Positions 9,668 to 58,540 of a stretch of 64,000 nucleotides of DNA are shown piece after piece. This DNA is from an uncultured Candidatus Saccharibacteria bacterium (GTDB taxonomy: Bacteria > Patescibacteriota > Minisyncoccia > Phycocordibacterales > UBA9988). The notes beneath the pieces are model-generated. The model saw only the letters and a program-made list of their open reading frames with translations. It was not told where the DNA came from and searched no databases. A program made the translations under genes and the position numbers. The stretch covers positions 112,975 to 176,974 of the forward strand of contig CAYNXC010000002.1 of NCBI GenBank assembly GCA_964401135.1, read 5' to 3'. Every line of letters starts with the position of its first letter. The first letter of the stretch is position 1.

Positions 9668-10564
9668 TTATGCCAAATAAAATTCTCCCAGCCGCTCTAT
9701 GATAACACCGCGAAGTTCTAATGAAGCGATGATGGTATTTGCCTCACTGATGTGGAGTGGATGCACGCTTTCACTTGATTGTGACGAGGCAAGCGCACGG
9801 ATGAGAGAGTCGCGTGGGGCAGGCTCTTGTGCGAGTAGCTCAATAATATTCCGTTCCACTGCTGTGAAGAGATCTAAATTGAGTGTCTGTGCCTCATCTG
9901 CATCGTTATGCAAGCATAGAGCTGAGAGTATATCATTACTCTCAGTCACAGTAGTTGCTCCTTGGCGTAGGAGTGCATTGGTGCCCTTGGAGCTGGGAGT
10001 AAAAATAGAACCTGGCACGACGAGTACATCACGGTTGTAATCAAGTGCGAGGCGTGCAGTGATGAGTGTACCCGAGTGCTCACCTGCTTCAATAATTAGT
10101 ACTGCGTGCGCAAGCCCTGCCATAATGCGATTGCGACGCGGGAAGGTGTGGAGTCCAGCTGGTGTTTGCGGAGAGAGTTCGGAGATAAGTGCACCCCCTG
10201 CATCAACAATCTTGTCTGCGAGATGGATGTTTGACGGAGGGTGGAGTACGGATCGATCTAATCCAGAGCCAGGGATGGCGATAGTGGTGAGTCCAGTAGA
10301 GAGTGCGGACTGATGCGCGATGGTATCAATCCCGATGGCGAGACCTGAGACGATGGCTAGCGGATGTCCTGCGAGTCCATGCACTAAAAACTCACACACT
10401 TCCTTCCCGTAGCCACTTAATTTACGCGAGCCAACCACAGCAAGATATTTTAACTCAGAAGAGGGGAGTACTCCCTCTAACCACAATTCCTTTGGGGCGT
10501 CAGGTATCTCTTGTAACAGTTCCGGAAACTCTTCCTGTCTTAGATGTGTAAACTCCCGCGCCAT
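9668..10564 (-). CDS. dprA: DNA processing protein DprA/Smf
   Basis: Rossmann-like DprA core LAVVGSRKLSGYGKEVCEFL...GIDTIAHQSAL. Confidence 0.8.
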   Translation of the reverse strand: MAREFTHLRQEEFPELLQEIPDAPKELWLEGVLPSSELKYLAVVGSRKLSGYGKEVCEFLVHGLAGHPLAIVSGLAIGIDTIAHQSALSTGLTTIAIPGSGLDRSVLHPPSNIHLADKIVDAGGALISELSPQTPAGLHTFPRRNRIMAGLAHAVLIIEAGEHSGTLITARLALDYNRDVLVVPGSIFTPSSKGTNALLRQGATTVTESNDILSALCLHNDADEAQTLNLDLFTAVERNIIELLAQEPAPRDSLIRALASSQSSESVHPLHISEANTIIASLELRGVIIERLGEFYLA

Positions 10565-10600
10565 CTATACAGTGTAACAGACTCGCGCTACTATAGGGCT

Positions 10601-11863
10601 ATGTTGGATATTAAGTTTATTCGGGATAATAAGGAGCTGGTAGCCGAGGCGGCTAAGAAGAAGCACATCACCTTTGATGTAGAACATCTAATCTCCTTGG
10701 ATGATGAGCGGGTCAGACTTCTCGCCGAGGTTGAAGGAGCTCGTGCCACACAAAACGCGGCCAATGATGCTATTGCCCAGGCAAGCACGAGTGAGCGAGA
10801 AAAACTACTCACTGAAATGCGCGCAGTTAAAGATGCTCTCGCTGGCGGTGAAGAAAAACTTAAAGAAGTGATGAATGAGTGGCGCTTAGCAATGCTCCAA
10901 GTCCCAAACGTTCCTGATATGAGTGTGCCTGATGGCGACGACGACTCCGCGAATGTTGAGTACTCCACATGGGGTGTGTTGCCTCAATTTTCGTTCACAC
11001 CCAAGAGTCACATCGAGCTTATGGAAGACTTACACATTCTTGATCTTGAGCGTGGCGCAAAGGTTTCCGGTTTCCGTGGCTACTTTCTAAAAGGGGACGG
11101 CGCACTTCTTTCCATGTCTATTTGGCGTCTCGCTATTGACTCTTTAGTGAAGAAGGGATATGAGCCGATGCTCACTCCTTCACTCGTCCGCAAAGAGCCA
11201 CTCTTTGGCACCGGCTATCTCCCGCAAGGAGAGGAGGATCTCTATAGAACACAAGATGGCGAATATCTCTCGGGTACCGCTGAGGTCCCTACGATGGGGT
11301 ATCTGATGGATGAGACACTGGAAGCACGCGAGCTCCCAAAAAGATTCGTTTCTTTTTCTCCCTGCTACCGCCGTGAGGCGGGGAGCCACGGCAAGGACAC
11401 GCGCGGAATTATGCGATTGCATGAGTTCTATAAAGTGGAGATGGTAGTGCTCTGTGAAGGCACACACGACGAGAGTGTGCGGTACCATGAAGAGATCCGT
11501 GAGAATGCGGAGGAGCTGATGCGCGCGCTCGAGATCCCGCATCATGTAGTTATAAACTGTGGTGGAGACCTAGGGCTTGGTCAGGTAAAGAAATACGACA
11601 TTGAAGCGTGGATCCCTTCAGAGAACCGCTACCGCGAGACGCACTCCATCTCGTACTTCCACGACTTTCAAACACGCCGTTTCAATATTAAATACAAAGA
11701 TGTGGAGGGGAAGCGCCGTTTTGCTCACTCGTTGAATGGTACCGCCTTTGCCACTCCACGCCTACTCATCCCACTCTTAGAAAATCATCAACGTGAGGAT
11801 GGGAGCGTCACTGTACCCAAGGCTCTCATACCATATTTCGGAAAAGAGACTCTTGTCCCGTAG
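10601..11863 (+). CDS. serS: seryl-tRNA synthetase (start placed at MLDIKFIR; ORF-track start at 10544 overlaps dprA)
   Basis: N-terminal coiled-coil arm, class II motifs FRREAGSHGKDTRGIMRLHEF and GTAFATPRLLIPLLENHQ. Confidence 0.9.
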   Translation: MLDIKFIRDNKELVAEAAKKKHITFDVEHLISLDDERVRLLAEVEGARATQNAANDAIAQASTSEREKLLTEMRAVKDALAGGEEKLKEVMNEWRLAMLQVPNVPDMSVPDGDDDSANVEYSTWGVLPQFSFTPKSHIELMEDLHILDLERGAKVSGFRGYFLKGDGALLSMSIWRLAIDSLVKKGYEPMLTPSLVRKEPLFGTGYLPQGEEDLYRTQDGEYLSGTAEVPTMGYLMDETLEARELPKRFVSFSPCYRREAGSHGKDTRGIMRLHEFYKVEMVVLCEGTHDESVRYHEEIRENAEELMRALEIPHHVVINCGGDLGLGQVKKYDIEAWIPSENRYRETHSISYFHDFQTRRFNIKYKDVEGKRRFAHSLNGTAFATPRLLIPLLENHQREDGSVTVPKALIPYFGKETLVP

Positions 11864-12679
11864 ATGAACAGAAAAGAAGTACTTCTCAAACGATCAGCCG
11901 AATTCAAGCGTCGTTCCCGCGCGGTCAAGATTGTCTTATCGTTCGGATTTTCCGTGTTTTTGGTACTGGGAATCTTAGTGGTCTTAAATCTCTCATCATT
12001 CTCCCTCTCACGGGTGAGTGTCGATGGCGCGAGCACAGTCTCTGCAGAAAAAATCTCTCGTGCTGCGAGAGAGGTCTTGCGTGGATCTTACTTCTACCTC
12101 ATCCCTCATAGAAGTATGGTATTCTTCCCGCGCAGTCGTGTGCGCGAGGAAGTGCTGGCTGTCTCTCCGCGCATTGAGCGAGTGTCACTCAATACACACC
12201 GTGGTACTTTGGTGGTGCATGTGAGCGAGCGAACGCCGGTGGCACTTTGGTGCGGAGAGCTTGTTGTGTGGAGTAGTACTTCGCAGTGCCTCTCGTTAGA
12301 CAGAGGCGGATTCGCCTTTGGCCTTGCTCCCTATGCCCACAGTGGCGCGTATCTCATATTCAACACCTCCGATCGTGGTCCACGCGTGGGGTCCTTCATT
12401 ACCGAGAGTGGCACCTTTGGCATGCTGTACAACTTTGTAAAAACATTTCCACTCCCTATCTCGCGCGTACTCATCAACAAAAATTTGCGCTACACGCTCT
12501 ACACAAAGGATGGTATGGCAATCTTTATTAATCCGCGCATTCCGCTTGATCAGACGCGGAGCTCTGTCATCACTGCGCTCTCAAGTGATGCACTTGCCTC
12601 GAGTACTCGCTTAGGGGAAAGCATAGAGTACTTAGATGTCCGTGTCTCTGGAAAAGTCTTCTACAAATTGAGAGAGTGA
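11864..12679 (+). CDS. ftsQ: cell division protein FtsQ/DivIB-like (N-terminal TM helix + POTRA)
   Basis: basic N-terminus, single TM, VSVDGASTVSAEKISRAAREVL POTRA-like segment; weak family resemblance only. Confidence 0.5.
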   Translation: MNRKEVLLKRSAEFKRRSRAVKIVLSFGFSVFLVLGILVVLNLSSFSLSRVSVDGASTVSAEKISRAAREVLRGSYFYLIPHRSMVFFPRSRVREEVLAVSPRIERVSLNTHRGTLVVHVSERTPVALWCGELVVWSSTSQCLSLDRGGFAFGLAPYAHSGAYLIFNTSDRGPRVGSFITESGTFGMLYNFVKTFPLPISRVLINKNLRYTLYTKDGMAIFINPRIPLDQTRSSVITALSSDALASSTRLGESIEYLDVRVSGKVFYKLRE

Positions 12680-12698: not shown

Positions 12699-15149
12699 AT
12701 GAGGATTTTTCCACCAAAACATACGATCATGATCGTGCTCACTGTTCTCTGTGCGGTTGGTGCTGGGCTTTTTATTGCGGCAGGTTTTGTGTATGGAGGG
12801 CGTTTTGCTCTCTCTCATTCTCCGCTCAAGCTCTCCGCTCAAGTGAGCAAAACTTCTTCCAGTCCTTCCAGTCCTTCCAGCCCTTCAGTCTCTACTCCTA
12901 TATACTCCAAGATCACTCTTGGCTCTCTTTCGCAGGATCTAAGCTCTCTGCCACAGCAAGGGAAGGCACTCTATGTAGATTTAGATGCCATGACCCTTTC
13001 TCTCTACTCCGATGGCACTGTGACAGAGAAAGTCCCCGTGATGTCTAAGGGACGCATTGGTACTCCCTGGGAGACGCCTCCAGGAGTGTATAAGGTTGAG
13101 ACGAAGGAGGAGAATCACTTCTCATCCATTGGTACCGTATGGATGCCGTACTCGATGCAGTTTTTTGGTAACTTTTTTATCCACGGGTGGCCATACTATC
13201 CTGGGGGGACGCCAGTCCCCAAGGGCTATTCGGGGGGGTGCATCCGTCTGAGCACCGAGGACGCAAAAAAGGTGTTTCTCTTTGCTGATACAGGCACTCC
13301 GCTTATTGTGGTGGGGAAAAACTCATCGAGCGCTACTTCTCCTGACGAGAACTTTTATTACATTGCTAATCTTGGCGCTACACCGAGAGTGTCTGCTGGT
13401 GCATACTTGGTTGCCGATCTTGATTCGGGTGACATTCTCCTTGAGCACAATAGTGGTAGAGAGTATCCCATTGCATCTCTCACCAAACTGATCACCGCAC
13501 TTACCTCACTTGATGTAGTAAACCAGTATCAGACTGCACGAGTGTCCAGCCGAGCGTCTGCTACATACGGTAACTTTGGAGGACTAAAGGAGGGTGAGGC
13601 TGTAAGCGTGGGAACCCTTCTGTACCCACTCCTCTTAGAATCATCTAATGATGCGGCAGAGGTGATTGCCGAGCATTACGGGAGAGATCGTTTTCTCTCG
13701 CAGATGAATAAAAAAGCGCGCTCCATCGGATTGAATATGACTCACTTTGATGATCCTAGCGGACTCTCTCCAGGGAACACTTCAACCGCACAAGATCTCT
13801 TTACGCTCGCGCAGTATATATACCGGCACAAGTCTTATGTGTTGGGCATTACCAAGACAGCAGTGAAGAAAGTTGAGAAAGAGAGTCCAAGTGCAAAAAC
13901 ACATACCTGGTACAACAATAATTATTTTGTTGTTAAAGGTGACCCAAAGTACTTGGGAGGGAAGAATGGTTATACCGATGCTGCAGGGCGCACCCTCATT
14001 TCACTGTTCTCACTCCCGCTCTCTGAGTTTCAAAAAAGAGATATTGCAGTCATCGTGCTTGCGAGTGAAAATCGCGAAAAAGATGCAGAAAAATTAGTCC
14101 AGTATGTGAGTAAAAATATATATTTCGGCTTAAGTCCAGATGCCAAGCGGCTTGCCGTCCAGTCTGTAGCTACTCCGGAGCTCACAAGAGGGCAGACACG
14201 AGAATCTGTCTGGAGCGCAATGGGGAAGCGCATGGTCTCTTCACTCGGTATCCTCGCAACATCGACAGCCAGCTCTAGTAAACAAGTCCGCCTACTCTTT
14301 GTTGGCGATATTATGGCTGATCGTGGAGTGCGTTCTGTCGTGGAGAGGAGCTTCTCGGGGGATTATCAACAACTATTTGCTCGTGCGCGCACAATTGCTG
14401 ATTACGATATTAGTTTTGCAAACCTTGAGGGGCCGGTCTCTCTCCGTGGGACGGATCATGGTAGTATCTACTCCTTCCGTATGGACCCAAAGCTTGTGCC
14501 CGCACTTAAGAAGGTGGGCTTTGATGTGTTGAGTGTGGCAAATAATCACGCAGGTGATTGGGGGGGCGAGGCATTTTACGATACCATTTCTCAAGTATCT
14601 GAGTACGGTATTCTCCCTGTTGGAGGAGGTTATGATCGCACAGATGCAGTAGCAGTGAAAATCCTTGAACGCAATGGAGTGCGCGTCGGCTTCTTAGGGT
14701 TTACTGATGTGGGACCTGACTGGTTAGAAGTTGGTGCAAAAAATGCGGGAGTGCTCCGTGCCGCTGATGGAGACTTTGACACACTGATTGCTCACGCGGC
14801 GAGGCAGGTGGACGCGCTTGTTGTCTCCTTCCACTTTGGTGATGAGTACCAGCCGCTCTCTAACGCACGGCAGAAGGCGCTTGCGCGGCGCGCGGTAGAA
14901 AACGGCGCGCGGATTGTAGTAGGACACCATCCTCATGTGGTACAAGAGCTGGAACGCTACAATGGTGGAGTGATTGCCTACAGCTTGGGTAACTTTATCT
15001 TTGATCAGAACTTTTCTCCCGAGACTATGCAGGGCTTAGGGCTCATGGTGACACTGAATGCACAAGGGGGAGTGGAGGATGTACGACGGCTCCCATTCAG
15101 TATAAACAAGTCATACCAGCCAGAACTTGATGTACAGAAAAAGAAATAG
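12699..15149 (+). CDS. three-domain peptidoglycan-remodelling fusion protein: TM anchor + L,D-transpeptidase (YkuD) + D-Ala-D-Ala carboxypeptidase (S11) + CapA/PGA_cap metallophosphatase-like domain
   Basis: Ldt catalytic HGWP...SGGCIRL; S11 motifs SLTKLIT (SxxK), LESSNDAAE (SxN), GGKNGYTD (KTG-like); CapA-like VRLLFVGDIMADRG...SVANNHAGDWG...GHHPHVVQE. Confidence 0.7.
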   Translation: MRIFPPKHTIMIVLTVLCAVGAGLFIAAGFVYGGRFALSHSPLKLSAQVSKTSSSPSSPSSPSVSTPIYSKITLGSLSQDLSSLPQQGKALYVDLDAMTLSLYSDGTVTEKVPVMSKGRIGTPWETPPGVYKVETKEENHFSSIGTVWMPYSMQFFGNFFIHGWPYYPGGTPVPKGYSGGCIRLSTEDAKKVFLFADTGTPLIVVGKNSSSATSPDENFYYIANLGATPRVSAGAYLVADLDSGDILLEHNSGREYPIASLTKLITALTSLDVVNQYQTARVSSRASATYGNFGGLKEGEAVSVGTLLYPLLLESSNDAAEVIAEHYGRDRFLSQMNKKARSIGLNMTHFDDPSGLSPGNTSTAQDLFTLAQYIYRHKSYVLGITKTAVKKVEKESPSAKTHTWYNNNYFVVKGDPKYLGGKNGYTDAAGRTLISLFSLPLSEFQKRDIAVIVLASENREKDAEKLVQYVSKNIYFGLSPDAKRLAVQSVATPELTRGQTRESVWSAMGKRMVSSLGILATSTASSSKQVRLLFVGDIMADRGVRSVVERSFSGDYQQLFARARTIADYDISFANLEGPVSLRGTDHGSIYSFRMDPKLVPALKKVGFDVLSVANNHAGDWGGEAFYDTISQVSEYGILPVGGGYDRTDAVAVKILERNGVRVGFLGFTDVGPDWLEVGAKNAGVLRAADGDFDTLIAHAARQVDALVVSFHFGDEYQPLSNARQKALARRAVENGARIVVGHHPHVVQELERYNGGVIAYSLGNFIFDQNFSPETMQGLGLMVTLNAQGGVEDVRRLPFSINKSYQPELDVQKKK

Positions 15150-15150
15150 C

Positions 15151-16356
15151 ATGAGCGCATTTTTTGTCTTTTCTTTTTTCTTTCCATTTTCTTTTGGGTG
15201 GGTCACCGATATGGCCTCTCAACTTGCGACACTGTCTGCTGGCGTAGGGCGTGCATACCCAGAGACAGTAGACATCCAAGATCTTATGGATCGTTACACT
15301 GCGGGGAAACTCTCTGTGCTTATTGTGCCTGGGCACGATAATGCAGATCCTGGCTCTGCTTTTGGGAAGGTGAGTGAGTCTGAGGTAAGCCTAACGATGA
15401 CTAAGTATCTTTTGGAACGCTTTGCAAATGATCCGCATATGCGCGCTTCAAGTACGCGCGATACTGAAACAGGGTCATACAGTACAGAATTGCAGTCATT
15501 TATACAAAAAGAGTCGCAAGATATTGACTCGTGGATGAGAACCTTGAGAGCCTTCTCTGCGCATTACCACCAAGTCGGTCTCTTAGATAAAAAAATACTT
15601 GTACACCATAACTCCGCAAATACGCGTGTATCGCGCATACTCTATGGCATTAACCGTTTTGCAAATGAGCACGACATAGACATTGTGCTTCATGTTCACT
15701 TTAACGATTACCCACGGCGCTCTACCCGGAATATAGGATCCTATTCTGGCTTCTCTATCTATGCGCCGAGTGAACAATTACCCAATGGTCGTGCAAGCCA
15801 GGCTCTTGCCGAGTCAATATGGTCTCGCCTCTACTCACGCTTACCTGTCAGTAATCTGCCCGGAGAAAACTCGGGCATCGTCCCAGATCAAGAATTGATT
15901 GCGGTTGGATCAAATGGTTCGCGAGAAAAAATATCACTACTGATTGAGTACGGGTATATCTACGAATCGCAGTTCAAAACACCTGAGGTGCGGGAAAAAA
16001 TTTTACGAGAAATGGCGTATCAGACCTACCTCGGTGTGGTAGATTTCTTTGAAGCAAGCGGTGCCACACTCGCAGAAGAGACGACACTCTTCCCCTATAC
16101 ATTCACGCGTAATCTTACTAAGGGAGAGAAGCATTCTGCTGATGTACTACACTTACAAGGAGTACTCCACACGATTGGCTTTTATCCTCCAGACGGGAAA
16201 ACACTCTCAGACTGTCCGATCAATGGAATTTTTGGGAACTGTGTAGAGCGCGCGGTAAAAGATTTCCAATCCGCGCATGACTTGAGTACCACTGGATCTG
16301 TGGGGCCGCAGACGCGTGAGAAGCTAAATAGATTTACGGAATTGGAAGAACAATAA
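15151..16356 (+). CDS. N-acetylmuramoyl-L-alanine amidase (Amidase_3) with C-terminal peptidoglycan-binding domain
   Basis: signal-like N-terminus, LIVPGHDNADPGSAF...EVSLTMTKYL amidase_3 core, C-terminal PG_binding_1-like GSVGPQTREKL. Confidence 0.75.
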   Translation: MSAFFVFSFFFPFSFGWVTDMASQLATLSAGVGRAYPETVDIQDLMDRYTAGKLSVLIVPGHDNADPGSAFGKVSESEVSLTMTKYLLERFANDPHMRASSTRDTETGSYSTELQSFIQKESQDIDSWMRTLRAFSAHYHQVGLLDKKILVHHNSANTRVSRILYGINRFANEHDIDIVLHVHFNDYPRRSTRNIGSYSGFSIYAPSEQLPNGRASQALAESIWSRLYSRLPVSNLPGENSGIVPDQELIAVGSNGSREKISLLIEYGYIYESQFKTPEVREKILREMAYQTYLGVVDFFEASGATLAEETTLFPYTFTRNLTKGEKHSADVLHLQGVLHTIGFYPPDGKTLSDCPINGIFGNCVERAVKDFQSAHDLSTTGSVGPQTREKLNRFTELEEQ

Positions 16357-16444: not shown

Positions 16445-16894
16445 TTAGAACTCTTCATCCTCTCCACGATACGCGGGAGAGGGTAGGTAATAGCAGTCTT
16501 GATAGAGCGGACCACCATTTCGCTCATTTGTCCCAAAGAAGGTGAGAGGGAAGGTCGCTATCTCAAACACGCCGACTGCCGCATCCCGCACAGTCCGTAA
16601 GGGGCCGAGCACCGTACCAGCAATGTTAGAGAGTACTGGTATCTCTACCGCAGGGTCTCCATTAAAAACAGACCGGGTGATGTGTTTTGGAGAGGTCACG
16701 GCCATATGGACTCCGTGGGCAAAGCGGTTGCCCATCCGTGCGCCCATAGTATCAACTCTCATCTCAAGATCGGTGGGGCAGGGTGCTGGTGGACAGACAC
16801 AGCACGGCTCCTCTTGGTTGTAATACTGCTGTGCCAAGCAGAGATTAGTAAGAGAGCATACAAGCACAGCCAGAACGACGAGTAGCTGCTTCAT
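16445..16894 (-). CDS. small secreted Cys-rich hypothetical protein (signal peptide; CCVCPPAPCP motif)
   Basis: start MKQLLVVLAVLVCS preceded by perfect AAGGAG RBS; hydrophobic signal then cysteine cluster EEPCCVCPPAPCPTD. Confidence 0.6.
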   Translation of the reverse strand: MKQLLVVLAVLVCSLTNLCLAQQYYNQEEPCCVCPPAPCPTDLEMRVDTMGARMGNRFAHGVHMAVTSPKHITRSVFNGDPAVEIPVLSNIAGTVLGPLRTVRDAAVGVFEIATFPLTFFGTNERNGGPLYQDCYYLPSPAYRGEDEEF

Positions 16895-17004
16895 AGCAAG
16901 ACTCCTTTTATTGTGAGGATCATACCGCATGAGCGGTCTCTATTTCAACAGTACTACTTGTGGTGGAGATTGTCAATCAGAGGGTGCTCTGCTACGCTTC
17001 CTCT

Positions 17005-19021: not shown

Positions 19022-19095
19022 TGCCGAGTCGTCTAATGGTAGGACATCGCCCTTTGGAGGCGAGTATCTTGGTTCGAATCCAAGCTCGGCAGCCA
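19022..19095 (+). tRNA. tRNA-Gln(TTG): tRNA-Gln (anticodon TTG), CCA encoded; overlapped on opposite strand by the 3-prime end of the recombinase ORF
   Basis: acceptor tgccgag/ctcggca (U1-A72), anticodon stem tcgcc/ggcga loop ctTTGga, T-arm cttggttcgaatccaag, discriminator G + CCA. Confidence 0.8.
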
Positions 19096-20694
19096 ATTTG
19101 CATCTTTTTGATGCGCAGACACTTTTTGTCCAGTAGTTGCTGGCTCTTTTGTGATTTCTGCCAGTTCGTAGCTCATATTCAAGCGAGGAATCCAATTATG
19201 CAGAAATTCGGCAGCTTTTGAGTAAACGGGCTTGATTTCATAACGGTTTTGCAGAAGGTTCGTAAAAAGCTGGGAGAGAAGCAGACGCTTTTCCTCGATG
19301 TTGGCTTTCTCATAGATTTCCTTCGACCTGAATGCAAGCTCGTGGACTGCTAGACCAAGATGCAGAAACTCATCATTCTTGTCTCCCAAGCGTTCTAGCG
19401 CAGCTTCCAAGGTTTCTTCTTCGGTAGTGCACTCGGCAATCTTACGCTCAACGTATTCAAGTGGAGCTTCGCGGTTGATTTTTGCTTCGTAGTATTTGTC
19501 CTTCTGTTGGCGCACGTTGGCGAGAAGTCCGTTGAGATGAGCTATTTCTTGCTCGCGTGTCTTGATTTTGTCCGCGTGTTCCTCGCGCAAGATATTTTCA
19601 ATCTCGCATAGCACCTCCTCACTCTTGGGTGCGATGAGGTCAAAGAAGTCTGTATACTGGGACTCAATACGGTCTTGGCGCACGCAGGTTTTACCAGAAC
19701 ACCTCTTATACTCGCCGTGATTATTACAGTGTCCATACCAATGTCCTTTCTTCTCGTACCAGGTCAACATTCCGCCGCAGTGTTCACACTGAATCTTGCT
19801 CTTGAAAAGAGGGTTGTGCTTCGCCAGGTGCGGATTTTTGGTCTTGCGGCGCAAGATAGTCTGTACTTTGTCGAAGGTATCTTTGGTAATGATAGGCTCG
19901 TGCTTCGCAGGTAATACGCCACCTTTCCATCGCATCTTGCCGTAGAAGAAAGGATTTTGCAGAAGCTGGTGGATTTTACTCATCCCAACTTTCTTCCCGC
20001 CTTTCTTGATTTTCTTTCCATCCACTTCTTTTTCAGTGATTCTAGTACGCAGCCCCTTCTCGTATAGTTCCTTTTCTAGCTTTGAAAGGGAGTAGTTGCC
20101 TGTAGCGTACAACTCAAACATTTTTTTGATGTGAGGTGCGATATTCTCATCTACCTGGTGAATCTTGCCACCAGTTTCTTCGAGAGGTTTGTATCCTAGC
20201 GGTGGCTTTGTTGGGTATAGTTCATTCTCGACCTTCACTTTTTGACTCTTACGCACTTCTTCGGAAAGGTTATTGGAATAGAAGCGAGCGATAGCTACTT
20301 TCATATCCCATACAAGATTCTCGTGCGCTCGTGTCTCGCCGTTTGCGATAAATGATTCCTTTACGAAGTGAACAGCCCTCTGCGGGTCAGATTTAAGCCA
20401 TTCATCCACTGTTCCAGCGTCTTTAAGATTTCTAGTCAGACGGTCAATCTTTTCACATAAAATAACAGGAATCTTATTCTTGGTAGCAAACTGAATCATC
20501 TCGTAAAAGGTCTTTCGAGCGTGCTTGCCACTCGCAGATTCAGAGATTCGATACACTTTCACAACATTAAGATTCCTCTTGGTTGCGTGCTCTCTCAAGA
20601 GATTTTCCTGCGCGTCGAGTGAATAGCCAGTTTCCTGGTCTTTGGTTGAAACTCGACAATATGCAACTGCTTTTACTTTTGTTTCTGTGCTCAT
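19033..20694 (-). CDS. large serine recombinase (integrase) of integrated element; last ~21 codons lie antisense to tRNA-Gln
   Basis: N-terminal resolvase catalytic segment AVAYCRVSTKDQ, recombinase domain, zinc beta-ribbon CEHCGG...HCNNH...C, C-terminal coiled-coil. Confidence 0.85.
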   Translation of the reverse strand: MSTETKVKAVAYCRVSTKDQETGYSLDAQENLLREHATKRNLNVVKVYRISESASGKHARKTFYEMIQFATKNKIPVILCEKIDRLTRNLKDAGTVDEWLKSDPQRAVHFVKESFIANGETRAHENLVWDMKVAIARFYSNNLSEEVRKSQKVKVENELYPTKPPLGYKPLEETGGKIHQVDENIAPHIKKMFELYATGNYSLSKLEKELYEKGLRTRITEKEVDGKKIKKGGKKVGMSKIHQLLQNPFFYGKMRWKGGVLPAKHEPIITKDTFDKVQTILRRKTKNPHLAKHNPLFKSKIQCEHCGGMLTWYEKKGHWYGHCNNHGEYKRCSGKTCVRQDRIESQYTDFFDLIAPKSEEVLCEIENILREEHADKIKTREQEIAHLNGLLANVRQQKDKYYEAKINREAPLEYVERKIAECTTEEETLEAALERLGDKNDEFLHLGLAVHELAFRSKEIYEKANIEEKRLLLSQLFTNLLQNRYEIKPVYSKAAEFLHNWIPRLNMSYELAEITKEPATTGQKVSAHQKDANWLPSLDSNQDTRLQRAMSYH

Positions 20695-20700
20695 AGTTGG

Positions 20701-21252
20701 TTATTGGTTATCTTTTTTGTTATTAAGATTTCCATCTCCATCAAGCATTCCCATTTCTTTATAAAACTTCATCCTGCCAGCCTCTGATAGACCCCAGGGA
20801 TTACCTGCTCGCGCTGCTAGTTCTTGCTTGCGCTTTGCTTCGTACTCCTCAAGAAACTTCATTGTCTCTTTCTCTTTTTCCCAACGCTCATTTAGTTTAG
20901 GGTGAGGAATATAAACAGATTTTCCTTGTCGTAATAGTTCAAGCTGTTCCTCAATTTTCCTTTCGTCCTCTCGTTGGTTGTAGAGATGTTGTCCTACGCT
21001 ACAGATTCCCCACACGAGAAGGAAAAGACGGTAGCTCGTATCAATCTTTGTGATTTCAATTCCAATAGTCCAATCAAGAGCTATGCTCAATAGGAAAAGT
21101 ATTCCGAAGGCATAAATGAATCCAAAGAATACGATTCCTAGAAGGTACGAGATGCTTTCCTTTATTTCTTTTAGTGTTGATTGTTCTTGCATACAAAAAG
21201 CGGCAGCCGAGGAGCCTGCTGCCCGTAGTAATGAATTGCACGAGGCAACCAT
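20701..21252 (-). CDS. hypothetical membrane protein of element (2-3 TM helices, charged C-terminal tail); start uncertain
   Basis: hydrophobic segments LLGIVFFGFIYAFGILFLLSIAL and RLFLLVWGICSV; no RBS evident at either candidate start. Confidence 0.45.
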   Translation of the reverse strand: MVASCNSLLRAAGSSAAAFCMQEQSTLKEIKESISYLLGIVFFGFIYAFGILFLLSIALDWTIGIEITKIDTSYRLFLLVWGICSVGQHLYNQREDERKIEEQLELLRQGKSVYIPHPKLNERWEKEKETMKFLEEYEAKRKQELAARAGNPWGLSEAGRMKFYKEMGMLDGDGNLNNKKDNQ

Positions 21253-21375
21253 TTACGGAGGTCTCGACTGCCGCTTTCAGTCCATAAATGGAGCCTGAAA
21301 AGGCAGAGACCTCGTACATATTTCATTACTACAGGCAGCGTACTAATTATAGCAAGGTGTACAATTGTGGCAAGT

Positions 21376-21600
21376 CTACCTTTTGTCCACAGCGTTAAGC
21401 GCATCAGCGATTGCAGCAATAATGTCGTGGATGATACTCTCACTCACTTTTTCGATTTCTTCTTTTGTTAAAGGTCTATCAAGATACGCTTCCGCCTGGT
21501 CTTGCAAGTCAGCTTCTGTAAGCTCGTAGATGGTACGTCCTTCGCCTATTGTGTTCATCTGATTTAGTTGGTTAAAGCTAATAATCTCCAGGGGGTGCAT
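21376..21600 (-). CDS. small acidic hypothetical protein of element
   Basis: 74-aa ORF co-oriented and abutting (3-nt gap) the primase-polymerase gene. Confidence 0.4.
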   Translation of the reverse strand: MHPLEIISFNQLNQMNTIGEGRTIYELTEADLQDQAEAYLDRPLTKEEIEKVSESIIHDIIAAIADALNAVDKR

Positions 21601-21602
21601 TT

Positions 21603-23324
21603 TTAACCATCATCCACCCTGGGTTGGTTGAGTGTGCAAAGTACGGTGTTTTTCTGTCCCTGTTCCGTGTGCACTTCGCCAGCCTCGATAAGTTCTTCGA
21701 GCGTAGTTTTAAGGGTAGAGCGTCCGACTTTCACACCAGCGTCTCCGACACGTTTCAAAACATCACTTTTTGACAGTGGCTCAAGTGATTTTTCCAGTAC
21801 GCTTTTAATAGCCGCCGCAGCCTCTGCCTTCTTGCTCGGTTTCTCTTTCACTTTACCCGCGTACTCGAATCTCAAAGAATGCGGTTCGCTAACGACATTC
21901 ACCTCAAAAGGTTTCTGTTCTTCCTCCTGTCGCAATTTAGTCTGGGTAAGTGTTAAAAACCTCTCATCTGCTTTTCTTGATACAGCAATATGACAGTCCA
22001 GGAACGCGAGAATATCGGATGAGCCACGCATCTCTTGGGATAAATTAGAGGATACGCCACCTTGTTTTCTATGGTGATGCGTGATGAGAACGCTGATGCC
22101 ATTCTTCGTGAACTCTTTGAGATGTTTGGAAACAGCCGCCATTTTTGAAGCATCATTTTCATCTGTATTGTGAATCCTAATGAACGAATCGAAGATGATA
22201 ACTTTCGCTTCCAGCTTTTCGGCTACACCCAGAATGCTTTGCACATTCTCATCATTCAAAGAGAATCCTTGAAGTGAAATAAAGTGAATAGGCAGACCCG
22301 ATGTCGCCGAAAGTTTCTTTAACCGACCTTGAATCAGAGACGGAGAGTTTTCTTCGTCTACGATGAGTACAGGACTTTTCATAACATCAAAGTTATCGAA
22401 AACTCTGTTACCCTCGGCAATTTTGAGTGCGATATGTAGCGTGAGCCACGTCTTGTAGACCGCAGGTGCGCCAGAAATGAAAGTGATAGCGTCTTTCGGA
22501 ATGAGATTCTCGACCACCCACTGAATATCGCCGAAGTCTTGCCGCATCAATTCATCTAGGGACGTTGAAGCGAATGTTTTTGCAGGTTCTTTCTCGCCGC
22601 GCTTCTTGTTTTCACGTTCTCGAATACTCTCAAACGTGCGGCGCAGCTCAACTTCTTCGAGTGGAGGATTGCACTTGCTTTGATTCCAAGCAGATACAAG
22701 CGACCACGCCATTTCCCAGTCATTTCTGTCACGAAAACTACCGAGTAATTTTCCAATGACTTTTGCTGCGGTGTCATTGCGCCTACCTTCCAAAACTTTT
22801 TCATCTGTATTCCGTGAATCATTCCGTGTGCTTACTGGAATCTGTGTATCGAGCACCCACTGTGGCAATTCCTCAAAGCCAGAATCATCAGGAGAAATAA
22901 TCCACTCGTAGGATTTACCACTTTCGTGAATTGAGGGCGGCATAACTACGTACCCACCATCACCACGAACATCCACGTGCGAAATGATTCCAGCACTGTT
23001 TTTAACCTCTCTGCCTGGGTGCTTGTAGAAATAATGTTTTCCTCTACCTGTACGAGAAACTGCTGTAGGAGAAAGTGGTTTGTCTATCTTTTCCATCGTG
23101 TCTACATCAACCACAACAATGCCAGAAATTGCACCTGTAATGACTCCAACATTAGCGTTGGGAAACCGCGCATACCACTCCTCAATTTGTTCCTTCGATG
23201 CTCGCTCTTTCTGATACTTTTGCCAAACTACAAGTGGTTTTTTATCTCGCCCAACAGGAAAAACAGAGAAGCCGAGTTCGGCGTAATGCAATGCTGATTT
23301 AAGAATCTCGTTTCTGTTTTCCAT
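21603..23324 (-). CDS. replication protein: bifunctional DNA primase-polymerase (PrimPol) N-terminal domain fused to RepA/AAA_25-type ATPase-helicase domain
   Basis: PrimPol-like LGFSVFPVGRDKKP...GVITG...VVVDVD; ATPase block LIVDEENSP...VLITHHHRKQGG typical of AAA_25/RepA. Confidence 0.7.
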   Translation of the reverse strand: MENRNEILKSALHYAELGFSVFPVGRDKKPLVVWQKYQKERASKEQIEEWYARFPNANVGVITGAISGIVVVDVDTMEKIDKPLSPTAVSRTGRGKHYFYKHPGREVKNSAGIISHVDVRGDGGYVVMPPSIHESGKSYEWIISPDDSGFEELPQWVLDTQIPVSTRNDSRNTDEKVLEGRRNDTAAKVIGKLLGSFRDRNDWEMAWSLVSAWNQSKCNPPLEEVELRRTFESIRERENKKRGEKEPAKTFASTSLDELMRQDFGDIQWVVENLIPKDAITFISGAPAVYKTWLTLHIALKIAEGNRVFDNFDVMKSPVLIVDEENSPSLIQGRLKKLSATSGLPIHFISLQGFSLNDENVQSILGVAEKLEAKVIIFDSFIRIHNTDENDASKMAAVSKHLKEFTKNGISVLITHHHRKQGGVSSNLSQEMRGSSDILAFLDCHIAVSRKADERFLTLTQTKLRQEEEQKPFEVNVVSEPHSLRFEYAGKVKEKPSKKAEAAAAIKSVLEKSLEPLSKSDVLKRVGDAGVKVGRSTLKTTLEELIEAGEVHTEQGQKNTVLCTLNQPRVDDG

Positions 23325-23326
23325 AA

Positions 23327-23596
23327 TTATTTAATCTTCTTGCTCTTTTCAGCCCAACCACATACGAAGCCTGCCAAGAAGGATGTATCAACCAGGCTTT
23401 TCACATTCAGAAAAGAAATGGGCATACCACCAATTGCATCTGATTTAGCCAGGTTTGTTTGACTGAAATTGGAGAACTCTCGCCACATCTGCTGTTTTAT
23501 TCCCAAGAGTTTTTCTGCTCTTTTTGCGTTGTGTTCGGCTGCGTTGATGACTTGATGCGGGAACTTATTTAAGAACTTTTTAGTAAACTTTTTCAT
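23327..23596 (-). CDS. hypothetical small protein of element
   Basis: ORF only, co-oriented in operon-like array. Confidence 0.35.
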   Translation of the reverse strand: MKKFTKKFLNKFPHQVINAAEHNAKRAEKLLGIKQQMWREFSNFSQTNLAKSDAIGGMPISFLNVKSLVDTSFLAGFVCGWAEKSKKIK

Positions 23597-23603
23597 ATCT
23601 CAA

Positions 23604-23783
23604 TTAGCTATTTTTATTTACCTCCTCGTTTTTAATGCGAAGCTCAATCCTTGCGAGCGTCAGGTAGTAGTCCATTGCTGCTTCCAGCAACTTCTTCACA
23701 TCCTCATCGGGTATACCCGTGAACGCTCCGAGCTTGTCGAAAGGTTTGCGTAGCCGTGCAATTTGTTCGGGTCTCAATTGCAT
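23604..23783 (-). CDS. hypothetical 59-aa protein (below ORF-track cutoff)
   Basis: in-frame ATG..TAA MQLRPEQIARLRKPFDKL..., fills gap between co-oriented genes; not otherwise supported. Confidence 0.25.
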   Translation of the reverse strand: MQLRPEQIARLRKPFDKLGAFTGIPDEDVKKLLEAAMDYYLTLARIELRIKNEEVNKNS

Positions 23784-23785
23784 AG

Positions 23786-24055
23786 CTACTTCTCCGCATA
23801 GAGGCGGTTCTTAAGTTGGCGGAAATTATGGAACAGACTTTGGATGGGGACTTCAATTGTTTTGTCTCCCCAGAAGTCGCTGATAGCTGTTTCAATTCCT
23901 TCCGTCGCGGCAAACACAAAGTCCATCCTCTTGTCGCTTGTACGCTCCAAACCGACCAATTTGAATTGGAGCGTGAGCAGCGTTGCTGCCAAGCCAATAT
24001 CACTGATGAATACTTTTTGCTCTGTGCTTGCCATACTCTGATTCTTGCAAGCCAA
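23786..24055 (-). CDS. hypothetical small protein of element (strand choice tentative; alternative + ORF 23816-24067)
   Basis: co-orientation with flanking minus-strand genes. Confidence 0.3.
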   Translation of the reverse strand: MACKNQSMASTEQKVFISDIGLAATLLTLQFKLVGLERTSDKRMDFVFAATEGIETAISDFWGDKTIEVPIQSLFHNFRQLKNRLYAEK

Positions 24056-24163
24056 GTCCGTACCTAGATATCTCCATAGATACTTTCCAAAAGAGAAAAC
24101 ACTCCCAGAAATGAGAGTGTCTTTTTTACTTGTCCACAGTAGCTATTGAGTACCTATGGGTAC

Positions 24164-24871
24164 CTATCCGATTTTGATGATTTCTATCCGAGGGTTGAGT
24201 CTGTAGCCGCTCCCTTGTTTCGCTTCAATGAGTTTGAGTGAACCTTTTAAGTCCAGCTCGTCAGCAGTTGCTTTATTGAGCTTTCCAAACTCATTGCGCA
24301 ATCGTGCCGATGTCATATCAAGTTCTGATGCCATATCCTGCGTACTTAACTCGTAGTCAGCATTAGGATTGTCAATAAGATATTTGAAAACTTTGAAAGG
24401 CGCTCCATTTCGTGCCATAGAGTATGATTTTTCTTTCGTGTCCTTGAAAACAATCCCTTCGTCTTTGTAGTACAGAACCAATTTGTCTATTGGTGTTTGA
24501 GTAGAGACAACAGACTTTTGCTTATTCACAAATGCCGCAATCTTCTTCGGGTCAATCGTTATACGCCACGCGGTTTCTATGGAGTCGAGCATTTCCTCGT
24601 CGTTTTTTCGCCAGTTTTCTATATCTGCCTCTGATATCTCGTTGAAGTGCCATTCATTTTCTCCGCTCGTTCGCTCCATTTGTCCTTTGCATTGTTCGTG
24701 ATTGCTTACGCCGTGTTTGGATAGAAGCGAAAATCCCAGCATTAAATCGTGCAAGGTAATACCTTTCGCATCAAACATTTTTGTCGGTACATACACGACA
24801 CTTTTTTCTTTATTAAAATCTACACGCGAGTAGTCGTGAATGACTTTTGCGATATCCATCTCCATTGCCAT
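24164..24871 (-). CDS. hypothetical protein of element, possible C-terminal DNA-binding domain
   Basis: 235-aa ORF divergent from xis-like gene; no firm motif. Confidence 0.4.
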   Translation of the reverse strand: MAMEMDIAKVIHDYSRVDFNKEKSVVYVPTKMFDAKGITLHDLMLGFSLLSKHGVSNHEQCKGQMERTSGENEWHFNEISEADIENWRKNDEEMLDSIETAWRITIDPKKIAAFVNKQKSVVSTQTPIDKLVLYYKDEGIVFKDTKEKSYSMARNGAPFKVFKYLIDNPNADYELSTQDMASELDMTSARLRNEFGKLNKATADELDLKGSLKLIEAKQGSGYRLNPRIEIIKIG

Positions 24872-24938
24872 TTATCCAGTTTACCACAACTGGACACATT
24901 TGCTCATAGGCTTACATCGTAGTATTATGAGTATACCT

Positions 24939-25151
24939 ATGAAGAAAAGTAAGGAGGAGCAATTTTTGACTCTTCAAGAGGTCGCCAAGCGCTTGCGGGT
25001 TAGCGAGCGTTCGGTGTTTCGATATATTCACGACGGAAAGATTGAAGCCACGAAAGTGGGCTACTGGCGCATCACTGAAAGTGCTTTGGCAAAGTTTTTG
25101 AAAGACCGCTCCAATCTGAACAAGTCGCCGCGTAAGAAGTCGAAAAAGTAA
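24939..25151 (+). CDS. xis: excisionase-family HTH DNA-binding protein (MerR/Xis-like HTH_17); start at MKKSKEEQ
   Basis: LTLQEVAKRLRVSERSVFRYIHDGKIEATKVGYWRI matches excisionase/HTH_17 pattern. Confidence 0.7.
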   Translation: MKKSKEEQFLTLQEVAKRLRVSERSVFRYIHDGKIEATKVGYWRITESALAKFLKDRSNLNKSPRKKSKK

Positions 25152-25176
25152 CCTCGTTTTTTGAAATGGAAATGTA

Positions 25177-27687
25177 ATGCAAAAAGAAGCCAAAGCCAGA
25201 ATCAAAATAAACAACCTACTACAGCAATCTGGCTGGAGGTTTTTCGATGATGAGAACGGCAAGGCAAACATCACCCTTGAGCTTAATACCAAACTTACGA
25301 ACAAAGATATCAATGATATCGGCGAAAACTTTGAGAACACAAAGAACGGTTTTGTAGACTTCCTTCTGCTCGACGATAAGGGCTTTCCGTACGTTGTTCT
25401 TGAGGCAAAGTCCGAGGACAAAGACCCTCTTGATGGTAAAGAGCAGGCACGTCGCTATGCGCAGTCTCTGAACGTCCGCTTTGTTATCCTTTCAAACGGG
25501 AACCTCCACTACTTCTGGGACTTGGAGCGCGGCAATCCATCCATCATTATCCAATTCCCAACACCTGAATCTCTACAACATTTTGAGCAGTTCAAACCGA
25601 ATCCTAAACAACTTGCCGAGGAAAAAGTTTCTAACGATTACATAGTTCTTACCCAGAAAGCGGAGTACCAAAATGACCCGCGCTGGATAGACGAAGCACA
25701 GCGAGATGATTTCGTGTACGCGGAGTCGCTCAAGTTCTTGCGCCCGTATCAGCTTCGTGCGGTTCAGTCTCTCCAAGAAGCTGCTACTGCTGGTAATGAC
25801 CGTTATCTTTTTGAGATGGCAACGGGTACGGGTAAAACACTCGTGTCTGCTGCTGTTATCAAACTCTTTCTCAAGTCTGGTAATGCAAAGCGCATCCTCT
25901 TTCTTGTAGACCGTTTGGAACTTGAAGACCAAGCCGCAAAGAGTTTTAAGAAACTACTCTCGAAGGATTACACAACTGTTATCTACAAGGAGAGCAAGGA
26001 CGATTGGCGTAAGGCAGAGATTGTTGTCTCAACAGTGCAAAGTCTATCTTTCAATAACAAATACCAGCGACTCTTTTCTCCAACTGACTTCGACCTCATT
26101 ATCTCTGACGAAGCCCATCGTTCAATAGGCGGAAACAGCCGTGCGGTTTTCGAGTATTTTGTTGGCTACAAGCTCGGACTTACAGCAACACCAAAAAATT
26201 ATCTCAAGGGCATTGACCCAGATAAACTCAACTCAAAAGACCCTCGTGCGTGGGAACGCCGACAACTTCTTGATACCTACAAGACTTTTGGTTGCGAGAG
26301 CGGAGAACCTACATTCCGATACACACTCCTCGATGGCGTGAAAGATGGATATCTCATCAACCCTGTTGTTGCTGATGCTCGTACAGAGATTACGACAGAG
26401 CTTCTTTCAGAGAAGGGATATTCTCTGATGGTTGAAAGTGAAGATGGTAAAGAGGAGGAACAGGTCTTCTTTCATACTGATTTCGAGCGTAAGTTTTTCT
26501 CCGACAAGACCAATCAGATTTTGTGCAAAACATTCTTGGAAAACGCACTCAAAGACCCGATTACGGGTGAAATAGGAAAAGGTATCGTTTTCTGTGTGAG
26601 CCAGAAGCACGCCTCAAAAATTACCCAGACGCTCAATCAGTTTGCAGACCAGCTTTATCCAGGAAAGTACAACTCCGATTTTGCGGTGCAGATTACTTCC
26701 AACATTCCGAACGCACAGGAATATACCATCAACTTTGCGAACAATAACCTTAATGGCTATACGAAGTTCCTGGATGGCTATCGTTCCAGCAAGACACGCG
26801 TCTGCGTAACGGTAGGAATGATGACAACAGGATATGACTGCGAAGATATCCTGAATGTGGCACTGATGCGCCCTATATTCTCTCCAACAGATTTCATTCA
26901 GATAAAGGGACGCGGTACACGTAAGTTTTCGTTTGTGCACCAGGAAAAAGAAGGTGGCGAGATACAAGAAGCAAAGATACCAAAAGACAAGTTCAAGCTG
27001 TTCGATTTCTTTGCGAACTGTGAATACTTCGAGGACAAATATAACTACGATGAGGTTTTGGTTCTTCCAACCATCGGCACGGGCACAGGTGGTGGTGATG
27101 GTGTGAATATAGACGAAGTATCAATCACACAGCACGACCCACTCAAGACGTTTACTGAAAAAGCGGTTGGTATGGATGGAATGAAGATTGACCGCAAGCT
27201 ATTTGAGAAGTTTGAGGCGGCAATCAAAGAAGACCCATTCATCAAACAGAAATACGAAGAAGGCGACCTTGCTTCCATCGAAAATTACGTAAAAGAAAAT
27301 ATCTTCGATAAGCCAGAGGAATGGTTTAGTCTCGATAAGCTCCGCAAGTCTGTCAAAGCTGACCGTCGCATCAGCATCCGTGAGTTCATTGCCAAAGCGT
27401 TTGGAGGCATCACCAGGTTCAAGTCAAAGGATGAATTGCTTGAAGATGAGTTTGAGCAATTTGTCGCTATCAACAAACCAGACAGCCAATACGTAATGCC
27501 AATCAAGAATTATTTGAAGGCATACATCACTGATAACGAAATTAGAGACATTATCGAGAAAGGAGAATATACGCGCTTGGCAACCAACCCCAAGCTCACG
27601 TTTGCTGACCTCCAAGAGCTAAATGGTTGGATTGAACGCGTGCCAGAATACGTGAAGGACTACGTATCTCTTAACGCTTATATGTAA
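25177..27687 (+). CDS. hsdR: Type I restriction enzyme R subunit
   Basis: HsdR_N nuclease motif VDFLLLDDKG...VVLEAKSE, SF2 helicase motifs ATGTGKT (I), DEAHR (II), C-terminal helical region. Confidence 0.9.
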   Translation: MQKEAKARIKINNLLQQSGWRFFDDENGKANITLELNTKLTNKDINDIGENFENTKNGFVDFLLLDDKGFPYVVLEAKSEDKDPLDGKEQARRYAQSLNVRFVILSNGNLHYFWDLERGNPSIIIQFPTPESLQHFEQFKPNPKQLAEEKVSNDYIVLTQKAEYQNDPRWIDEAQRDDFVYAESLKFLRPYQLRAVQSLQEAATAGNDRYLFEMATGTGKTLVSAAVIKLFLKSGNAKRILFLVDRLELEDQAAKSFKKLLSKDYTTVIYKESKDDWRKAEIVVSTVQSLSFNNKYQRLFSPTDFDLIISDEAHRSIGGNSRAVFEYFVGYKLGLTATPKNYLKGIDPDKLNSKDPRAWERRQLLDTYKTFGCESGEPTFRYTLLDGVKDGYLINPVVADARTEITTELLSEKGYSLMVESEDGKEEEQVFFHTDFERKFFSDKTNQILCKTFLENALKDPITGEIGKGIVFCVSQKHASKITQTLNQFADQLYPGKYNSDFAVQITSNIPNAQEYTINFANNNLNGYTKFLDGYRSSKTRVCVTVGMMTTGYDCEDILNVALMRPIFSPTDFIQIKGRGTRKFSFVHQEKEGGEIQEAKIPKDKFKLFDFFANCEYFEDKYNYDEVLVLPTIGTGTGGGDGVNIDEVSITQHDPLKTFTEKAVGMDGMKIDRKLFEKFEAAIKEDPFIKQKYEEGDLASIENYVKENIFDKPEEWFSLDKLRKSVKADRRISIREFIAKAFGGITRFKSKDELLEDEFEQFVAINKPDSQYVMPIKNYLKAYITDNEIRDIIEKGEYTRLATNPKLTFADLQELNGWIERVPEYVKDYVSLNAYM

Positions 27688-27689
27688 TT

Positions 27690-52488: not shown

Positions 52489-52544
52489 GTGAATTATAAG
52501 GTTGTCCACCGTCTTTTTTGAACTCTACCCTGTATAATAGAGGC

Positions 52545-58536: not shown

Positions 58537-58540
58537 GCAT

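Follow-up and report, generated by a model that had tools for sequence, protein, structure and literature searches.

Peptidoglycan stem peptides are known to be trimmed by separate proteins acting in succession. In Streptococcus pneumoniae, DacA (family S11) is followed by LdcB/DacB (family M15B), and LdcB converts tetrapeptides to tripeptides; in Escherichia coli, PBP5/6a are followed by LdtD; and in Helicobacter pylori, Csd3 is followed by Csd6 (an L,D-carboxypeptidase of YkuD fold) and then by Csd4, a D,L-carboxypeptidase. Cleavage of the γ-glutamyl bond, which turns tripeptides into dipeptides, is the Csd4/Pgp1 step of Helicobacter and Campylobacter. We know of no characterised peptidoglycan pathway that includes a CapA-type domain. 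Here we analyse a gene on contig CAYNXC010000002.1 (assembly GCA_964401135.1), located in a 64,000-nucleotide stretch (positions 112,975 to 176,974, hereafter the window), whose 816-amino acid (aa) product joins a YkuD L,D-transpeptidase domain, an S11 penicillin-binding DD-peptidase domain and a CapA-type (PGA_cap) domain in one polypeptide.

Two described proteins are closest to the third of these domains. The reaction of CapA/PgsA in poly-γ-glutamate synthesis has resisted assignment for decades because the synthetase is an unstable membrane complex (PMC8179263). MslH, whose fold is calcineurin-like, is a Ca(II)-dependent epimerase of a peptide C-terminal residue, the Trp of a lasso peptide (PMC10406935), and its discoverers proposed that CapA is itself an epimerase that makes the D-Glu of poly-γ-glutamate (PMC8179263). 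Our literature search found no later paper that settles the function of CapA/PgsA. We give an even chance to the reading that the fusion is an outward-facing, membrane-anchored enzyme that matures stem peptides, with the CapA-like domain working on stems already trimmed.

A conserved three-domain protein of Patescibacteria

The open reading frame (ORF) begins with ATG and contains no internal stop codon. All three domains exceeded the curated Pfam cut-offs against which they were judged. An AlphaFold2 model built with a 91-sequence family alignment (mean predicted local distance difference test, pLDDT, of 88) divides the protein into a helix (residues 6-40), a stalk (41-68), YkuD (89-205), S11 (219-477), a linker (491-525) and PGA_cap (530-810), and thus predicts three well-folded domains with disordered linkers between them. 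Its parts are as follows.

12699..15149, +: whole fusion gene, YkuD + S11 + PGA_cap, type-II membrane-anchored (ORF, Pfam, homologues)
12726..12794, +: N-terminal signal-anchor or transmembrane helix, aa ~10-32 (hydropathy; AlphaFold2 helix 6-40)
12819..12902, +: disordered Ser/Pro-rich stalk, aa 41-68, sequence SSSPSSPSSPSVSTP (pLDDT <50; poorly conserved)
12966..13310, +: YkuD L,D-transpeptidase domain, aa 90-204 (Pfam; His162 and Cys181, the latter with codon 13239-13241)
13353..14129, +: S11-family penicillin-binding DD-peptidase domain (aa 219-477 by structure, 228-435 by Pfam)
14169..14273, +: disordered inter-domain linker, aa 491-525 (pLDDT 39-52; conservation 0.25)
14286..15128, +: PGA_cap domain, CapA-type with calcineurin-like fold (structural aa 530-810; Pfam 532-770)

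The N-terminal helix is the sole transmembrane-like hydrophobic segment (Kyte-Doolittle 2.65), and the basic residues R2, K7 and H8 stand N-terminal to it; from this anchor and the domain layout we predict an outward-facing topology, with the catalytic domains beyond the membrane. The initial annotation, made from the letters alone, had described a single membrane-anchored chain of three domains, and that description holds. The YkuD domain matched its profile at 58.6 bits (cut-off 23.4; E 1.3e-15; profile positions 3-146 of 146) and contains the expected catalytic Cys in SGGCIRL (S178-G-G-C181-I-R-L), with His162. The PGA_cap assignment also withstood a check of Pfam boundaries, with a match at 222 bits (cut-off 27; E 1.5e-65) over profile positions 2-255 of 255.

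The S11 domain (124 bits, cut-off 27.6; E 7.4e-36) had been read as a complete carboxypeptidase module, a claim that stands in part. Its SxxK and SxN motifs are present (S260-L-T-K263, with the Ser260 codon at 13476-13478, and S315-S-N317), and the third triad is K422-N-G424, which keeps Lys and Gly but not the hydroxyl residue. Sequence and fold matches in the PDB were 3mfd (34% identity, root-mean-square deviation 2.1 Å), 6azi, 4ppr and 1skf. No PBP5-type C-terminal domain was found in the module by Pfam or in the AlphaFold2 model, the best NCBIfam match was a PBP7-type endopeptidase model (97.7 bits, far under its cut-off of 294), and scores were highest against PBP7/DacB/K15-type enzymes, the K15 DD-transpeptidase being a close fold match as well. 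These features suggest that the module may not be a strict carboxypeptidase but instead a DD-endopeptidase or a DD-transpeptidase.

In a search of 5.8 billion clustered proteins for homologues, 8000 candidates were scored and 1295 of them matched at E≤1e-5. All of the 120 best homologues listed (41-100% identity, 643-816 aa) carry PF03734, PF00768 and PF09587 together, and those with names belong to Patescibacteria/Parcubacteria (Paceibacterota, Ryanbacteria, Vogelbacteria). Their usual database annotation is merely "CapA family protein". The fusion thus constitutes a protein family conserved in Patescibacteria (NCBI Minisyncoccota). It had been called a non-standard architecture, which is correct in general but not within this phylum, where all of these homologues have it and it recurs among GTDB species representatives. 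This Parcubacteria-type gene is carried by many TPA_asm metagenome-assembled genomes bearing the title "uncultured Candidatus Saccharibacteria bacterium", a label that looks like a placeholder and not a genuine assignment to Saccharibacteria.

Such an ORF could also arise from a chimeric assembly, or from sequencing errors that let two or three neighbouring genes read through into one another. A split version does exist in one GTDB genome (L077, 5773-8210), where YkuD+S11 and PGA_cap are two overlapping ORFs, representing either a split gene or a frameshift. An identical 816-aa protein was nevertheless called on 11 contigs, the three shown coming from three different SRA runs; the best homologues are contiguous three-domain proteins down to 41% identity; and the linkers (~24% conserved in the family alignment) vary in sequence yet stay in frame. 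We therefore rejected mis-assembly or frameshift, whose probability we judge negligible.

PGA_cap as the constant core of the family

To place the fusion among its relatives we used a scan of GTDB species representatives, which returned at least 588 related loci, of which the best 80 were kept; because the scan was anchored on PGA_cap motifs and capped in number, the proportions of architectures among them are not an unbiased census. Architectures were typed with domain hidden Markov models (HMMs) from the family alignment, applied to the ORFs of each locus, and then checked with Pfam. All loci bearing a phylum-level name are patescibacterial. The 80 loci divide into five architectures.

PGA_cap alone, ~350 aa: 14 loci, 8 of them downstream of RNase R
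PGA_cap extended at its C-terminus by ~240 aa, ~550 aa in all: 10 loci, 7 downstream of RNase R
S11+PGA_cap: 40 loci, 39 downstream of RNase R
S11+PGA_cap+VanY: 2 loci, both Pfam-confirmed, 2 downstream of RNase R
YkuD+S11+PGA_cap: 14 loci, 6 downstream of RNase R

The same PGA_cap subfamily is present in every form (own HMM, E 1e-100 to 1e-120), and a single N-terminal anchor was found in 80 of 81 related proteins, across all architectures. Clustering of neighbouring genes placed the five architectures at one syntenic position, directly 3′ of RNase R. A second recurrent position, 3′ of an FtsQ-like gene, holds stand-alone and three-domain forms and is the one used in the window. The C-terminal extension proved to be VanY (PF02557) in all six cases tested by Pfam. 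This partner is closest to the LdcB L,D-carboxypeptidases, matching Bacillus subtilis YodJ (4ox3, E 2e-35) and then S. pneumoniae LdcB/DacB; LD_carboxy_LdcB is its top NCBIfam match, though under the cut-off of that model.

The recurrent partners thus represent three unrelated folds: the serine enzyme S11, the zinc enzyme of M15B (LdcB-like) type and the cysteine enzyme YkuD. Judged by family membership, all three act on positions 3-5 of the peptidoglycan stem and trim it from its C-terminus. Together, these observations identify PGA_cap as the constant core of the family, and stem-peptide trimmers as its partners. In a crude neighbour-joining tree of PGA_cap (CapA-rooted, without support values), the three-domain forms are basal and the others are nested within them, a topology which hints at an ancient fusion followed by the loss or exchange of domains.

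Residue conservation was measured in the 91-sequence alignment. In PGA_cap, fourteen residues never vary across the 91 sequences (D537, N575, E577, N616, H617, D620, H712, G714, E716, H744, H746, N765, D769 and Q770; the H617 codon is 14547-14549). The YkuD catalytic residues are conserved in 90 (His162) and 84 (Cys181; 6 Ser and 1 Asp instead) sequences, and those of S11 in 88 (Ser260), 89 (Lys263, Ser315/Asn317 and Lys422) and 90 (Gly424), the S11 nucleophile Ser being replaced in three family members. The middle residue of the S11 "KTG" varies more widely (T in 36, N in 22, S in 13, V in 12, I in 5 and R in 3 of the 91). PGA_cap therefore holds the most strictly constrained active site of the fusion protein.

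Several loci depart from the common arrangement; the split (L077), tandem and reversed versions are included in the counts above. One has an additional S11-only gene immediately 5′ of the three-domain gene (L009, 5884-9261), one a tandem pair of PGA_cap genes (L081, 5686-8672), and one the reverse order, PGA_cap then S11 (L066, 3126-4650).

Candidate substrates and chemistry of the PGA_cap domain

MslH (8gq9) was the only PDB relative of the PGA_cap domain by sequence, whether the query was the single sequence or a profile of all architectures (profile E 1e-21), and it was also the top Foldseek match of the whole fusion model (E 4e-20). Its acid/base pairs are His88/Asp91 and His295/Asp11, its metal ligands are Glu44, Asn87, His259 and His261, and it acts on peptides via a long substrate cleft (PMC10406935). 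A HMMER alignment places E44 on E577, N87 on N616, H88 on H617, D91 on D620, H259 on H712 and H295 on H746 of the fusion; D11 lies outside the aligned stretch and, from the common GD motif, probably corresponds to D537. MslH is thus the sole solved sequence relative and the best fold match, and its substrate is a peptide residue with a free α-carboxylate. It differs in having ~18-19% identity to the fusion domain, and in being a cytoplasmic enzyme of ribosomally synthesised and post-translationally modified peptides that lacks a membrane anchor and fused domains.

The domain had initially been called a phosphoesterase. A true metallophosphoesterase in this position would act on a teichoic-acid-like phosphodiester wall polymer or on a pyrophosphate lipid carrier, and the calcineurin-like fold (PMC10406935) is compatible with such an activity. 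So are the motifs that are kept: Asp, Asn-His (N616-H617, motif III), His (H712, motif IV) and H744-P-H746 (motif V) bring the domain nearer to canonical metallophosphoesterases than MslH is, three of the four site-A ligands remain, and retention of motifs III-V leaves hydrolytic chemistry possible on sequence grounds. However, the two-metal set that characterises the class, DxH/GD/GNH(D/E)/H/GHxH, is incomplete. The motif I His is missing (D537-I-M539 in place of DxH) and the motif II GD is replaced by N-L-E577. No metallophosphoesterase appeared at E≤1 when the PDB was searched with the PGA_cap profile, the sole characterised family member, MslH, is no phosphoesterase, and every recurrent fusion partner belongs to a family that acts on the peptide stem, none to one that acts on glycans or phosphate-linked polymers. 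We consider a phosphoesterase unlikely; for this domain the term is no more than a fold-level label.

The resemblance to CapA is closer. The domain is 34% identical to Bacillus anthracis pXO2 CapA over 85% of its length, matches the profile over its full length, and shares with CapA every invariant motif of that protein (GDxM, NxE, NNHxxD, HxGxEY, RQ, GHHPH and YSLGNFxFDQ) as well as the topology of an N-terminal anchor with the domain outside. This likeness would fit a role in which PGA_cap handles a poly-γ-glutamate-like polymer, made by PgsB and PgsC encoded elsewhere, while YkuD and S11 make stem peptides ready and join the polymer covalently to peptidoglycan; some YkuD enzymes do join non-peptidoglycan amines to stems, for example those of Braun lipoprotein. 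Two observations on the protein itself argue against that role. YkuD is missing in most members (40 are S11+PGA_cap and 24 have neither S11 nor YkuD). The domain also carries additional family-specific invariant motifs (YSFRMDP, SDVGPxW and FSxxTM) that are absent from CapA, which suggests a different substrate. It differs from CapA/PgsA, too, in being joined to peptidoglycan peptidases.

Genomic context points the same way. A phmmer search with pXO2 CapB, CapC, CapD and CapE against all ORFs found no homologue within ±6 kb of the 80 related loci, and none was found in five further genomic contexts or in the 20 other large ORFs of the window that were scanned. The loci scanned therefore lack the co-encoded PgsB/CapB ligase and PgsC/CapC subunit of a PgsBCA(E)/CapBCADE system, and the fusion's own locus, unlike that of CapA/PgsA, has no capB, capC, capD or capE partner among the ORFs scanned. 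We accordingly rejected a poly-γ-glutamate operon at the locus. The earlier suggestion of capsule anchoring, which is the job of CapD, not CapA, finds no support. A literature search found no paper linking Patescibacteria with poly-γ-glutamate. In sum, the polymer-attachment role, in essence the secondary-polymer idea of the initial annotation, seems to us quite improbable.

CapA-family genes occur widely on the plasmids of Rhizobium, Sinorhizobium, Streptomyces, Deinococcus and haloarchaea. In the single non-Bacillus example that was inspected (L090, Aquabacterium olei plasmid pTB101, 4413-5837), no cap genes lie beside the CapA-family gene. This arrangement and the wide plasmid spread suggest that much of the CapA family works outside poly-γ-glutamate synthesis.

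Our preferred reading, a stem-peptide maturation enzyme, starts from the known order of reactions. S11 enzymes make tetrapeptides from pentapeptides or from 4-3 cross-links, and YkuD enzymes, which require tetrapeptide donors, split off D-Ala4 and so produce tripeptides or 3-3 cross-links (PMC13344953; PMC12729407). The idea that S11 trimming would supply the L,D-transpeptidase with tetrapeptides, put forward in the initial annotation, thus follows established logic (PMC13344953), and at the level of protein family we assign the S11 and YkuD roles with high confidence from their sequences. As members of those families, the S11 domain would remove D-Ala5 or open 4-3 cross-links to leave tetrapeptide stems, and Cys181 of the YkuD domain would then attack the L-Xaa3-D-Ala4 bond of those tetrapeptides, releasing D-Ala4 and producing 3-3 cross-links or, with water, tripeptides. 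The fusion pattern suggests a third step, in which PGA_cap, the evolutionary core, would act on the same stem peptide. Its likeliest target would be the γ-D-glutamyl-Xaa terminus with a free α-carboxylate that trimming exposes, an end that chemically resembles both the C-terminus of poly-γ-glutamate and the free-carboxylate residue of the MslH substrate. The best-precedented chemistry would be metal-dependent two-base Cα epimerisation, as in MslH; the alternative would be hydrolysis of the γ-glutamyl bond, tripeptide to dipeptide.

This scheme resembles the separate-protein pathways both in the order of its chemistry, D-Ala5 removal and then attack on L-Xaa3-D-Ala4, and in the homology of its domains (S11 with DacA/DacB/PBP7, VanY with LdcB, and YkuD with the L,D-transpeptidases), whereas here the steps are united in one polypeptide. 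Compared with the Helicobacter pathway, a CapA-type domain takes the place that is held there by an M14 D,L-carboxypeptidase. Epimerisation of Glu at the peptide level also has a precedent in peptidoglycan synthesis: in the MurD2/MurL pathway of Xanthomonas, the stem D-Glu is made in this way and not from free D-Glu (PMC8788868). MurL, however, is cytoplasmic, ATP-dependent and of unrelated fold, and it acts on UDP-MurNAc-dipeptide rather than on the assembled wall.

We place the odds that the PGA_cap domain works on the stem peptide, as the fusion pattern suggests, a little short of even. That it belongs to a class of extracytoplasmic peptidoglycan-tailoring enzyme not recognised before, either an epimerase that needs metal but no cofactor or a γ-glutamyl-bond enzyme, acting on the γ-D-Glu-Xaa-COOH end of stems trimmed by its fused S11, YkuD or LdcB-like partners, is possible but doubtful, and that it is specifically an epimerase is rather unlikely. 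Free D-alanine could instead be the substrate, for example if the domain racemised it for salvage by an amino-acid-auxotrophic cell. D-Ala is the product common to all three partner folds (S11, LdcB-like and YkuD), and the family offers a precedent for Cα epimerisation beside a free carboxylate. Nonetheless, MslH works on peptides in its long cleft, stand-alone PGA_cap forms are common, and an extracellular racemase for a diffusible product would have no obvious advantage; we therefore regard this use of D-alanine as very unlikely.

Several observations weigh against a stem-peptide maturation enzyme, or against its proposed chemistry. Fusion and synteny demonstrate functional linkage, not a reaction, and the AlphaFold2 model, with a predicted TM-score of 0.64, gives no inter-domain geometry. 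Relative to MslH the ligand position is swapped (H261 for Gly714 and Gly293 for His744), and with the invariant E716 and H744 near Gly714 the metal site follows the CapA pattern and not that of MslH. The NCBIfam equivalog model of MslH (NF038314) scored 51.6 bits against a cut-off of 700, so that the domain is no MslH equivalog, and the residues shared with MslH are generic metallophosphoesterase motif residues, which do not separate an epimerase from a hydrolase. The degeneracy of the KTG motif, together with replacement of the L,D-transpeptidase Cys in 7 of the 91 sequences, suggests that in some members the partner domains may be altered, inactive or re-purposed. Lastly, pgsB and pgsC may be present elsewhere in the genome, since our searches covered loci.

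None of the three domain families is new, and public databases already list the proteins by generic names; our literature search brought up no paper on either the fusion or patescibacterial PGA_cap. As guilt by fusion, the pattern gives a strong clue to what the CapA family does. If the PGA_cap domain were a tailoring enzyme, patescibacterial walls would contain a stem-peptide modification as yet undescribed in bacteria, and the fusion pattern would provide the first contextual clue to the CapA/PgsA reaction in poly-γ-glutamate synthesis. It sets a domain with CapA motifs beside enzymes of exactly known substrates, and the ectodomain should be soluble, so that a defined test is feasible. Patescibacteria make up a large part of bacterial diversity, and their wall chemistry is barely characterised. 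A conserved module that often appears to be single-copy, and that unites a DD-peptidase, an LD-transpeptidase or LD-carboxypeptidase and a CapA-like enzyme, is likely central to the maturation of their walls, and would bear on susceptibility to β-lactams and carbapenems and on the wall fragments shed onto hosts.

Neighbouring genes and other features of the window

The fusion gene is flanked by co-directional genes.

10544-11863: SerRS (seryl-tRNA synthetase), co-directional with the FtsQ-like, fusion and amidase genes
11864..12679, +: FtsQ-like (weak POTRA) gene, ending 19 nt before the fusion; matches below cut-off
15130..16356, +: Amidase_3 (N-acetylmuramoyl-L-alanine amidase) + PG_binding_1 gene (Pfam), overlapping the fusion stop codon
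16362..16398: GC-rich hairpin of 17 bp, with the amidase gene on one side and a convergent ORF on the other

An amidase with a peptidoglycan-binding domain does follow directly, as the initial annotation had indicated (Amidase_3, 42.6 bits with cut-off 27; PG_binding_1, 46.5 bits with cut-off 23). The four genes run in the same direction with gaps of ≤19 nt or overlaps; the fusion and amidase genes are probably co-transcribed, and the hairpin is likely the end of the SerRS/FtsQ-like/fusion/amidase transcription unit. A scan for sigma-70 promoters found fewer sites than in shuffled sequence and was uninformative. The FtsQ-like assignment comes from Pfam POTRA_1 (E 6e-4) and NCBIfam FtsQ (E 2e-6), both below cut-off. 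FtsQ-like homologues lie upstream of the PGA_cap gene in 8 of the 80 loci, several abutting it directly, stand-alone forms included. The amidase and the FtsQ-like gene together suggest that, in this lineage, the fusion would serve to remodel the wall at the septum or in daughter cells.

The fusion-amidase pair and its flanks (DprA, SerRS, FtsQ-like, Dus and DnaX) are kept in the locus of a 48%-identical homologue and on a 716-kb chromosome (L068, OZ246403.1), which has the FtsQ-like and amidase neighbours of the window; in another locus (L088), an amidase homologue lies ~3 kb downstream of a stand-alone PGA_cap gene. The pair and its flanks are absent from the loci of 41-43% identical homologues. 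The amidase link is therefore lineage-specific, and we rejected adjacency to the amidase as a family-wide trait.

Convergent on the amidase gene is a 161-aa ORF (16445-16930, -) with an N-terminal hydrophobic segment and a Cys/Pro-rich motif, CCVCPPAPCP. It had no Pfam match, and gene calling picked it up in each of the three identical contigs. Beyond it, positions 19022-31459 hold a probable integrated mobile element adjoining tRNA-Gln (19022-19095), with the following genes.

19033-20694, -: large serine recombinase; its 3′ end overlaps tRNA-Gln
21603-23324, -: Prim-Pol/AAA_25 primase-helicase
25177-27687 and 27690-30113: type I restriction-modification system, HsdR and an HsdM/S fusion, respectively
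30101-31459: protein with a FokI-cleavage domain

The serine recombinase follows DnaX in the identical contigs and is absent at that position in the locus of the 48%-identical homologue. Positions 43948-48261 encode a 1437-aa BadF/BcrA/BcrD-type ATPase + DUF2229 "CoA enzyme activase", which is unexpected for a small patescibacterial genome. A carbohydrate cluster at 52518-60738 comprises GT4/GT5 glycogen-synthase-like, GH57 and GH15 genes, then glucose-6-phosphate dehydrogenase, 6-phosphogluconate dehydrogenase (6PGD) and phosphoglucose isomerase. The listed glucose-6-phosphate dehydrogenase ORF overlaps the GH15 end by ~100 nt and the 6PGD ORF by ~240 nt, so that the true starts are probably later. 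Lastly, a 404-aa protein (37360-38574) has a marginal bactofilin match (30.8 bits, cut-off 27.9) and may belong to a cytoskeleton with a bearing on wall or shape biology.

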